Shown piece after piece: positions 62,539 to 63,874 of a stretch of 64,000 nucleotides of DNA; the first letter of the stretch is position 1, and each line of letters starts with the position of its first letter. The DNA comes from Klebsiella phage vB_Kpn_K54_rec1. The notes beneath the pieces were generated by a model, which was given only the letters and a program-made list of their open reading frames with translations, ran no database searches and had not been told where the DNA came from. Location: the sequence record PQ569687.1, one strand, 5' to 3'. The position numbers were made by a program, and so were the translations under genes.

Positions 62539-62567
62539 TGACTTCTGATCTCTCATGTGAGATACTG
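62539..62567 (+). promoter_or_regulatory. promoter-like element (TTGACT-17-GATACT) facing the tandem repeat
   Basis: Read directly from the sequence. Confidence 0.35.
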
Positions 62568-62579
62568 AGCGATACCCCT

Positions 62580-62795
62580 AAAAAATTTTTTCGCGTAAGA
62601 AAACAAATACGATCTGGAAATTGAGATCTCGATCGAGAACCGGGCCGAAAAATTTTTTCTATAGAGAAAACAATTACGATCTCGATTTTGAAAAACCGAT
62701 CGAGAACCCGGTTGATAGCGAGAAAAATTTTTTGATAGTGAGAGCAAATACGTTTTTGAAAACGAAAAGTCGATCGAGAACCCAGAGTTCTCTAC
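62580..62795. repeat. three tandem imperfect repeats of about 68-76 bp (iteron-like) with an adjacent AT-rich tract
   Basis: The units share AAAAATTTTTT, GAAAACAAATACGATCT and TCGATCGAGAACC. An AT-rich tract at 62900-63060 follows. Confidence 0.6.
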
Positions 62796-63058
62796 CTGAA
62801 AATTTGAGATATCTTTTTCGCCTATTTGAGATAAATGTCCAATCTTGATGAAAAGATACCTATAGCAATCATACACTTGTGCATAATTTTTCGACATAGC
62901 TCCCACAAAGGTTTGAGATAATCTACTCCCAAAACTCTTGATTTAAAAATTTGCAGGGAAGATGAAATCCATTTCAAAAACGATTTTGAAAACCATTTCG
63001 AATTTTAAAATATCTTTGGGATATTAAATATCATACAAATATCACACAGTTTTGAATC

Positions 63059-63874
63059 TTATCTCGGACTGAAAATCACTTTCCATTTTAAAATATCATA
63101 GGTTGTACCTGTAGATATTTCATACATTTGAATCTCATCTGGAGTCGGATTACAAATGTCAATGAAAAATGTGCTCAATACAGAAATCAGGAACCGTTCT
63201 GTCTTTCCTGGGACTGTGTAAACAATACGCATATCACCGGGAATAGGAGAAAGGACCAAGGAAGTAGGGCCATTCATAAGTGTAACGGTATTATCAGAAA
63301 TCTTGATACGACCATCGACACCATACACCAAATCATGAGCAGAAGAATAATGTGCAAGCACCTCTACTACCGGGTTACCGACAAGGTTCACGAGGTAATC
63401 AAGATACAGGTCTCGCCATCCTCGATTCTGCATCATGTACCGTATATGGGAGCCTCCATCAAACATCTCACCCAGTTGCTCTGCGATCCAGGCAACACCA
63501 TTTGCAATGTCTTCTCTGTTCCAAGTATTGTCGATATCTAAGATATCCTTACTGAACTTGTTCATGCGCCGCATGGCATTGAGTACATACTCACCTCTTT
63601 CAACAAAGGCACGTTCAGTGTCTTTTGCATAATCGAGAAGCCCTTCAACCTCTGAACCTGTAGCGTATTGCTTAAGGTCATCAAGCACACTTTCCACGCT
63701 AGCCTTGGCCTGATTGAAAGTCCTCTCATCAGTCTCGTCAGTAGAGAATTCTACACCACCAAGGGCATATACTGCATCAAGGTAAAGCCTTTCAAGGTCG
63801 CCGCGCACGTTAGGAAAATCATAACTAACCTTGTTATGGGGGATAAGTTCGAGAGTGTTTAAAATAGTAGTCAT
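63059..63874 (-). CDS. hypothetical protein
   Basis: The start was set at MTTILNT. About 271 aa. Confidence 0.45.
   Translation of the reverse strand: MTTILNTLELIPHNKVSYDFPNVRGDLERLYLDAVYALGGVEFSTDETDERTFNQAKASVESVLDDLKQYATGSEVEGLLDYAKDTERAFVERGEYVLNAMRRMNKFSKDILDIDNTWNREDIANGVAWIAEQLGEMFDGGSHIRYMMQNRGWRDLYLDYLVNLVGNPVVEVLAHYSSAHDLVYGVDGRIKISDNTVTLMNGPTSLVLSPIPGDMRIVYTVPGKTERFLISVLSTFFIDICNPTPDEIQMYEISTGTTYDILKWKVIFSPR

Follow-up and report, generated by a model that had tools for sequence, protein, structure and literature searches.

Several described systems resemble, in one respect or another, the DNA element reported here. The lambdoid origin (ori-lambda) comprises four O iterons with phased A-tracts and an adjoining A+T-rich region, and is activated by transcription nearby. 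Another group of origins combines promoters with an unwinding element and needs no repeated protein-binding modules between the two, i.e., the T7 primary origin with its tandem promoters, T4 oriF and oriG, and ColE1 with RNA II. Long direct units, each carrying short boxes for one protein, are found in P4 ori/crr and in F sopC (43-bp repeats), and promoter-preceded tandem repeats form the ToxI arrays and the pseudo-ToxI of phage phiTE. We analyzed a triple direct repeat (the array) within a 64,000-nt stretch (the window) of Klebsiella phage vB_Kpn_K54_rec1 (PQ569687.1), a Mydovirus-type (Vequintavirinae, rV5-like) Klebsiella myophage. Its window sequence matches vB_Kpn_K45PH128C2 at 100% identity and ~35 other records at 95-98%. 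The array lies in an 857-bp gap free of genes (62202-63058). It most likely acts as protein-docking DNA, rather than as a gene or a folded RNA, and we tentatively propose that its three composite docking modules are cis-acting DNA belonging to a replication origin.

Like the lambdoid origin, the locus presents direct repeated modules with A-tracts, easily melted A+T DNA, promoters aimed at it and a phage-encoded winged-helix O/DnaD-like protein. The lambda iterons, however, are 19-bp palindromes ~24 bp apart within the initiator gene, whereas the units here are asymmetric 67-75-bp composites that always number three in the main clade and lie in a gene-free gap, ~4 kb from the only initiator-like gene; their origin role is one that we infer. 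With the promoter-driven origins the locus shares tandem promoters (P1-P3) that face low-stability A+T DNA and have no gene to express, but no R-loop-favouring G-rich transcript is evident and P3 is not found in all lineages. The long direct units with their short boxes recall P4 ori/crr and F sopC, as does the way in which unit sequence co-varies with lineage. Copy number in the array is fixed at three in the main clade, however, no ParB/SopB-like or alpha-like gene was seen nearby, and partition is not something that a lytic phage with headful packaging is known to need. The array is most like a combination of lambdoid or P4-type repeats with promoter-plus-unwinding-element origins, although it departs from classical iteron dimensions and belongs to no curated family.

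The likeness to ToxI lies in a promoter-preceded tandem repeat in a phage of the same subfamily as phiTE. The phiTE pseudo-ToxI, however, is at another locus, in the tRNA/terminase region, and ToxI units are 36 nt long, within the 34-45 nt of type III antitoxin arrays, near-identical, folded as pseudoknots and followed by a terminator and a toxin gene, whereas the array units are 67-75 nt long and 69-78% alike, with no conserved fold and no plus-strand gene downstream. A pseudo-ToxI or type III antitoxin mimic was rejected on these grounds. A perfect array of at least 9 units with a 36-nt period, which is that of ToxI-type type III antitoxin RNAs, was met by chance in an IMG/VR contig unrelated to this phage (3300009494_000190; L045 6783-7066). 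Nor does the array resemble a CRISPR-like array or an RNA anti-CRISPR, in which near-identical repeats of 28-37 nt alternate with unique spacers, given the limited likeness of its units, the patchy conservation along the whole unit and the inter-box sequence, which largely aligns across genera too.

The array consists of three direct copies (62581-62644, 62648-62711 and 62722-62785) with start-to-start distances of 67 and 74 bp, the second and third being 78% and 69% identical to the first. Tandem Repeats Finder (TRF) reported a period of 67 with a score of 170. An earlier note on this DNA had described three imperfect ~70-bp units with shared blocks, a promoter-like TTGACT-17-GATACT at 62539 and an A+T-rich tract at 62900-63060. 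All three were borne out, the promoter beginning one base further left and carrying a TG extended -10, and the tract containing 71.4% A+T compared with 55.8% window-wide. The parts of the array block are as follows.

62474-88 and 62503-17: two 7-1-7 palindromes, TGAGAATGATTATCA and TAAGAATGCTTCTCA, 29 bp apart and just upstream of P3.
62538-62566, plus strand: promoter P3 from a consensus scan (TTGACT, 17-bp spacer, GATACT, TGn extended -10), aimed at the repeat array.
62581-62647, plus strand: unit 1, with Box C (AAAAATTTTTT) at 62581-91, Box A (AATACG) at 62606-11 and Box B (TCGATCGAGAACC) at 62629-41.
62648-62721, plus strand: unit 2, with Box C at 62648-58, the Box A variant ATTACG at 62673-78 and Box B (CCGATCGAGAACC) at 62696-708.
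62722-62795, plus strand: unit 3, with Box C at 62723-33, Box A (AATACG) at 62747-52 and Box B (TCGATCGAGAACC) at 62770-82.
62803-62920, plus strand: spacer with three TTTGAGATA motifs, at 62803, 62825 and 62912.
62964-63002, plus strand: three 12-mers of the GAAAACCATTTC type (TRF period 12, 3.2 copies).
63007-63062, plus strand: AAATATC(A) 9-mers at 11-12-bp spacing in A+T-rich DNA (TRF period 11).

Boxes C, A and B follow one another at ~25 bp start to start, in a single orientation throughout the units, and unit 1 to unit 3 spans ~141 bp. Box C is an A5T6 palindrome, and AAAAATTTTTT often sits inside the palindrome GAAAAAATTTTTTC. The blocks were confined to the array. Within the 64 kb, AAAAATTTTTT occurs only at 62581, 62648 and 62723 (4 matches, including an overlapping one on the reverse strand, vs. 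0.25 expected) and the TCGATCGAGAACC block only at 62629, 62696 and 62770, while a profile of the 44-nt unit core matched exactly the three units (E = 1e-12 to 1e-13). Box B of unit 3 is followed by the hairpin-capable GAGAAC-CCAGA-GTTCTC. There are 4 copies of TTTGAGATA in the 64 kb, 3 of them in the post-array spacer (0.9 expected), and the motif is found again, in the corresponding position, in 4MG, pEa55 and two further relatives (loci L027 and L084). The 12-mer stretch, conserved outside Mydovirus as well, shares 71% identity with the centre of unit 2 and forms the fourth member of a 38-nt repeat family; it looks like a degenerate fourth module. Because of this identity between unit centres and 12-mers, the array and the 12-mer region may share a binder. 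The 9-mer segment is a candidate unwinding or iteron segment, and three AAATATC copies at ~12-bp spacing are also present in 4MG, CR9, pEa55 and L027.

Conservation was examined in 77 loci, and within-genus variation in nine Mydovirus sequences. For the earlier note, absence of the repeat from close relatives, with no phenotype, would have spoken against its proposal; every relative examined had the repeat. Three units with a span of 138-145 bp occupy the same position in eight genera of two subfamilies, i.e., Mydo-, Seuna-, Avuna-, Certre-, Henuna-, Vequinta- and Justusliebigvirus, and Phapecoctavirus with a 138-bp span. The two start-to-start distances are 67/75 bp in PVP-SE1 and in Av-05, 67/76 bp in 4MG, 63/78 bp in CR9, 71/74 bp in pEa55, 74/65 bp in rV5 and 75/67 bp in phi92; the unit span in phAPEC8 is 138 bp. 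Every complete genome with the window-type unit contains exactly three copies, with none elsewhere in the loci analyzed, and in phi92 and phAPEC8 the units are the same in number, spacing and position but differ in sequence. Between genera, array DNA is 74-79% identical, compared with 27-37% for the adjoining 271-aa protein. Within Mydovirus, variable sites numbered 0/67 in unit 1, 7/74 in unit 2 and 8/74 in unit 3 (9.5-10.8% in the latter two), 1/77 in the palindromes and 3/43 in P3, as against 15-31% in the flanking open reading frames (ORFs). Palindromes, P3 and unit 1 together form the most conserved stretch, with 4/187 sites variable. These data place the array under strong purifying selection, with the constraint on the DNA itself.

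In the two lineages compared, the boxes also change in concert, in all three units of a genome. Box A is AATCC in all three units of both pEa55 and rV5, and Box B is GATCGAGACCCC in Certrevirus and of the CTCAAGTCCCC type in pEa55. Identity was 0.712 among units within one genome and 0.680 between same-numbered units of different genomes, which refuted the idea that same-numbered units clearly surpass within-genome units in likeness; unit i nevertheless matched unit i best in 53% of comparisons (33% by chance). We read this combination, in which box changes are concerted and units retain some individuality, as suggesting sites that co-evolve with one recognising factor.

Two records break inside the array. 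In the EC152 record (PP681140; L008/L080), unit 1 is collapsed into unit 2 and an 80-bp terminal overlap is annotated as attL/attR; in PQ002170 (L009/L081), 8 nt of the unit 3 Box B are lost and the ends are error-rich. Physical genome ends in the array were rejected, as both breaks look like assembly artefacts caused by the repeat. PQ002170 probably lacks one unit, and the repeat appears to mislead assemblers. A host or plasmid origin of the sequence was likewise rejected, since there was no match in E. coli genomes and the one "plasmid" match is probably a misfiled phage genome.

Two ORFs cross the array, at 62553-62906 (minus strand, 117 aa) and at 62621-62848 (plus strand). The former has been annotated in Mydo, Iguana_ER37 and PVP-SE1 as encoding a hypothetical protein, and no ORF is annotated across the array in 4MG, Av-05, CR9 and pEa55. 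Neither unit spacing (67 or 74 bp) is divisible by 3, so that the units fall in different frames; orthologues are separated by 1-2-nt indels, and the minus-strand "protein" shares 49% amino acid identity, with 11 gaps, with its PVP-SE1 counterpart, compared with ~78% for the DNA. The array is therefore not coding, in agreement with the earlier note, which had dismissed these ORFs as repeat artefacts. The minus strand is stop-poor in most array orthologues, but stop depletion in several frames at once indicates a compositional effect.

A conserved RNA fold was also lacking. RNAalifold analysis of 12 orthologues gave consensus energies of -4.26 kcal/mol (plus strand) and -4.11 kcal/mol (minus strand). 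In both cases the covariation term was unfavourable (positive), and the array matched no Rfam family at gathering or E-value thresholds. The plus-strand transcript folds better than its shuffles (z = -3.07, vs. z = -1.14 for the minus strand), which can be attributed to self-complementary A5U6 tracts that are absent in Certrevirus. A scan of the window found no plus-strand intrinsic terminator after unit 3, and Box B has no complementary target elsewhere in the 64 kb.

With regard to physical properties, A+T content reaches 73.7% at 62960-63130, and the second (63002-63062) and third (62478-62538) least stable 60-bp duplexes of the 64 kb both flank the array. A-tract periodicity at 10.75-11 bp is higher in the array than anywhere else in the window; relative to same-composition shuffles, phasing is marginal in the window (z = 1.6) and pronounced in Seunavirus (z = 5-7). 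Intrinsic curvature was dropped as a conserved or defining feature, being strong in Seunavirus only and missing from several genera. The array contains 6 GATC sites in 233 bp, which places it in the top 0.5% of windows, and GATC is gone from the boxes in the Erwinia phage. Its plus strand is rich in purines and in GAAAA (11 GAAAA vs. 4 TTTTC, 7-fold over the window).

In the mechanism that we propose, a sequence-specific factor, probably phage-encoded, would bind each module, and the three loaded modules would build a nucleoprotein complex of fixed size (~141 bp). Together with rightward transcription from P3 and from two upstream tandem promoters, the loaded modules would open or prime the adjacent A+T-rich DNA. 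Operator palindromes, P3, the three modules, the three TTTGAGATA motifs, the three 12-mers and the three AAATATC copies would thus make up a self-contained block serving as the origin of replication of the phage, or as one of its origins. Several features make an origin the most plausible job for the array: its sites are repeated, its flanks are prone to unwinding, short iterons follow with promoters pointing at them, a winged-helix initiator-like gene lies ~4 kb away, and rV5-like phages have no assigned origin (PMC3606486). The earlier note's description of the repeat as iteron-like stood in part. The modules are direct repeats in the same orientation with invariant boxes, to which an initiator might bind, and the adjacent A+T-rich, low-stability DNA is a candidate unwinding element. 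The units are, however, composites of 67-75 bp rather than iterons of 17-22 bp at two-turn spacing, and neither DnaA (TTWTNCACA) nor IHF (WATCAANNNNTTR) sites were positionally conserved in 11 genomes.

These last two points weigh against an origin at this locus, as do several others. Certrevirus, Av-05 and phAPEC8 show no A-tract phasing. At the locus, GC skew carries no signal, following gene orientation and transcription; the rV5 paper, in which an origin was sought by skew analysis and none was found, reports that skew tracks gene orientation there too (PMC3606486). No recognisable initiator gene adjoins the array, its neighbours being a DUF7170 gene and a phrog_12959 gene. For the latter, the 271-aa neighbour, the AlphaFold2 model was unusable (pLDDT 41.9) and no significant sequence match was found in the PDB, the best being a designed helical protein. 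The only initiator-like gene encodes a 98-aa winged-helix (HTH_36) "replication initiation protein" ~4 kb away, beyond the right end of the window (L078 4217-6298), and this protein matches just the N-terminal third of a 337-aa PHROG family. Given its length and the two HNH endonuclease genes that adjoin it, it may represent a split or truncated initiator gene. The 12-mer/9-mer segment is variable at 22/98 sites (22%) within the genus, the highest value of the gap's non-coding segments. Distant relatives found via the upstream RNA motif depart from three units: L084 carries four short repeats of Box B, L091 and L092 have two units of ~150 bp, and Aeromonas-phage-like contigs keep the RNA block alone. 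The locus also has a genuine RNA gene, and a P3 transcript would include unit 1, its most conserved part, which keeps an RNA role alive.

Finally, the window contains two rival non-coding origin candidates, at 53.9-55.57 kb and 11.45-11.76 kb. The former (53900-55570) is an ORF-poor region of ~1.65 kb at a convergent strand switch, with several short repeats, palindrome copies and consensus TTGACA plus-strand promoters at 54318, 54440 and 54833; it corresponds by position to the ORF-free segment 104013-106618 of rV5. A ~2-kb gap free of transposon insertions was reported for phage Bas54 (HIDEN-SEQ preprint), and by position, at the convergent strand switch, it is the counterpart of this rival region and not of the array locus. 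No nucleotide similarity was found between the Bas54 gap and 53.5-55.8 kb of the window, nor between 53900-55570 and the Bas58 gap. The other region (11454-11760), at a divergent strand switch, contains three copies of a 24-mer at 11459-11565, TCTAATTATTCCCGATTAGGAATA, itself with an inverted repeat, and, at 11610, the 60-bp duplex with the lowest stability in the window. This region is a candidate for another control or origin region. In the literature that could be searched, we found nothing relevant on transcriptomes or an origin for this phage group, and no description of the triple array. The non-classical unit dimensions, the lack of conserved DnaA and IHF sites, the uninformative skew, the lack of a recognisable adjacent initiator and the rival regions are the reasons why we advance the origin only tentatively.

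The gap as a whole is a mosaic that was conserved in every relative read. On its left, P1 is followed by a G+C-rich conserved block, two TTGTAAAGA motifs with P2, and a second conserved block; on its right, one to five Fur-box-like palindromes precede P3, the three units, the three TTTGAGATA motifs, the three 12-mers and the three AAATATC copies. The remaining features at its edges and on its left are listed here.

62016-62201, plus strand: small left neighbour gene, DUF7170.
62221-62249, plus strand: promoter P1, a conserved sigma-70-type promoter.
62381-62409, plus strand: promoter P2 (TTGCAA-17-TATATT).
63059-63874, minus strand: right neighbour gene, 271 aa, phrog_12959.

All three promoters point rightward, in ~160-bp steps, opposing the surrounding genes; the minus strand holds nearly all other genes for kilobases on either side. 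The left end of the window (1-6737) carries 13 clustered tRNA genes on the minus strand. The distance from P3 to Box A is fixed at 39-40 bp, with the TGn kept, in Mydovirus, Seunavirus, Avunavirus and Henunavirus, and the array modules start ~10 nt 3' of the predicted P3 start. Certrevirus and rV5 have a weak P3 or none. By eye, a weak candidate promoter adjoins Box A in Certrevirus, and there is no clear promoter in phi92. In PVP-SE1, gp204 (L003 1989-2576) sits between the AAATATC 9-mers and the homologue of the 271-aa ORF, and PQ002170 has a counterpart of it that bears the annotation HNH endonuclease; L084 carries an ORF-sized insert (~5000-5460) between the small-RNA block and P2. The array block is undisturbed in both cases. 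That mobile or extra genes insert beside or into the gap while the block is kept together was counted in favour of the mechanism that we propose.

The G+C-rich block downstream of P1 (62256-62350, plus strand) is a structured small RNA without an Rfam family. Tested in a similar way to the array, it served as contrast and positive control, with an RNAalifold consensus of -16.85 kcal/mol. Under a model of hairpin, pseudoknot and stem, 84% of cells were paired, compared with 74.3 +/- 1.5 in shuffles, and covariation was 0.272 vs. 0.114, with 0/500 shuffles as high and low values in slid controls. The RNA consists of a 4-bp hairpin, a pseudoknot in which CCCC:GGGG changes to CCAA:UUGG, CCAG:CUGG or CCAU:AUGG, a stem with a variable hairpin cap, in which GNRA-type loops are frequent, and a 3' tail that does not vary, AAGGUNGAUCGCCGGNAG. 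Both Vequintavirinae and Stephanstirmvirinae conserve this RNA, and its 3' half is also present in Aeromonas-phage-like contigs, with a terminator after it. Further along the plus strand (62359-62460), the two TTGTAAAGA motifs stand upstream of P2, and an inverted copy of the module formed by the doubled motif and the -35 was seen at 53832-53871. The second conserved block, after P2 (CACATAGCGGG...ACAAACACCGG...CTGCC), shows apparent nested stems and is possibly a second small RNA.

The palindromes at 62474-62517 are candidate operators. The set comprises 31 copies in 11 phages (consensus TGAGAATGATTMTCA), with successive copies often 29 bp apart and 1-5 copies in the homologous gap of relatives. 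Compared with the Fur-type 7-1-7 operator (TGATAATnATTATCA), the palindromes match the motif at 10-14 of 14 positions and are arrayed upstream of P3, and one copy in 4MG is a perfect Fur-type site. They differ from it in that their consensus has G instead of T at position 4 (TGAGAAT) and that they lie at -45 to -100 from P3 rather than over it. Either host Fur or a phage protein is a candidate binder. At up to 3 mismatches, TGAGAAT-N-ATT(C/A)TCA occurs 27 times in the window, compared with 6.07 +/- 2.75 expected, and 0/100 shuffles reached as many. Copies at 54226-55452 and 58606-58620 also lie beside other sigma-70-type promoters. The palindromes may possibly reflect host Fur sensing or a phage repressor regulon.

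Among the other explanations for the array, a transcribed repeat RNA is possible though doubtful. P3, or read-through from upstream, would yield a non-coding RNA of ~230 nt or longer. Its three modules would act by primary sequence, for instance by titrating an RNA-binding protein or a complementary RNA in the manner of a sponge or decoy, or through antisense or interference against the converging leftward genes. Such an RNA would fit with the P3 extended -10 at a fixed distance from Box A in four genera, with a most conserved stretch made up of a promoter and the ~70 nt that would be transcribed first from it, with the genuine structured RNA gene in the same rightward island, and with the purine/GAAAA asymmetry and better fold z-score of the plus strand. 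The z-score, however, stems from the A5U6 tracts that Certrevirus is without, and neither strand has conserved structure or covariation; P3 is not evident in every lineage, the scan gave no plus-strand terminator after unit 3, Rfam no match and the 64 kb no Box B target, and no published transcriptome for the phage group was found. Purely transcriptional control we consider unlikely. In this case the modules would bind a phage regulator of P3 and the non-coding RNA cluster, or manage head-on transcription, with no role in replication. The modules begin close behind the predicted P3 start, and in Certrevirus the weak candidate promoter abuts Box A; the operator-like palindromes recur beside other sigma-70-type promoters (54226-55452, 58606) and hint at a regulon; box changes are concerted among the units, and the locus is an island of rightward transcription among leftward genes. 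Three 70-bp modules over 141 bp nevertheless exceed what a promoter-operator needs, the boxes occur nowhere else in the window despite its many promoters, the architecture is kept where P3 is undetectable, and the downstream iterons and A+T-rich tract would be left unexplained. Rather less probable again is a more novel reading, in which the array would be the template of a new kind of phage non-coding RNA. This unstructured three-module P3 RNA, possibly gated by the Fur-box-like operators, would titrate a host or phage RNA-binding factor, or a defence component, through its conserved boxes as a sponge or decoy, and would form one RNA-producing hub with the pseudoknotted RNA.

Known pac and cos sites contain a few repeated terminase-binding boxes on bent DNA (lambda cosB R1-R3, P1 pac GATC hexamers, SPP1 pacL), a resemblance that counts for a pac site, at which the small terminase subunit would bind the three modules to start headful packaging. 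The density of GATC in the array and the two GenBank records that break inside it point the same way, as do the terminally redundant and circularly permuted genomes of relatives, which indicate headful packaging (PMC3475682; PMC3606486). We regard a pac site as very improbable all the same. The large terminase gene of phiTE adjoins the tRNA cluster, which by synteny would put it ~50 kb from the array, and the terminase gene was not located in the window; moreover, assembly artefacts seem to account for both record breaks, the starts of other records lie at unrelated positions, and the Erwinia phage has lost GATC from its boxes. An ordinary small protein gene across the array, or a repeat without function, is scarcely credible. 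Annotation of the 117-aa minus-strand ORF in three relatives and the paucity of stops on that strand speak for a gene, but the frame-breaking spacings and indels, the amino acid identity far below that of the DNA, and the four genomes in which no ORF is annotated there speak against it, and the strong conservation across genera rules out a functionless repeat.

The rV5-like and phi92-like phages are widely used as therapeutic or biocontrol candidates, and the present analysis defines in them a compact, deeply conserved non-coding module in which operators and a promoter are followed by three composite docking modules, short iterons and a tract prone to unwinding. If this module is an RNA or regulatory hub, it would represent a new element of lytic-phage gene control, as would the previously undescribed pseudoknotted RNA beside it. 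If it is an origin, as we tentatively favour, it would be an unusual one, in which 70-bp composite modules replace classical iterons, and it would offer a handle for engineering these phages. The array provides a concrete and testable candidate for the origin question in a therapeutically used phage group.

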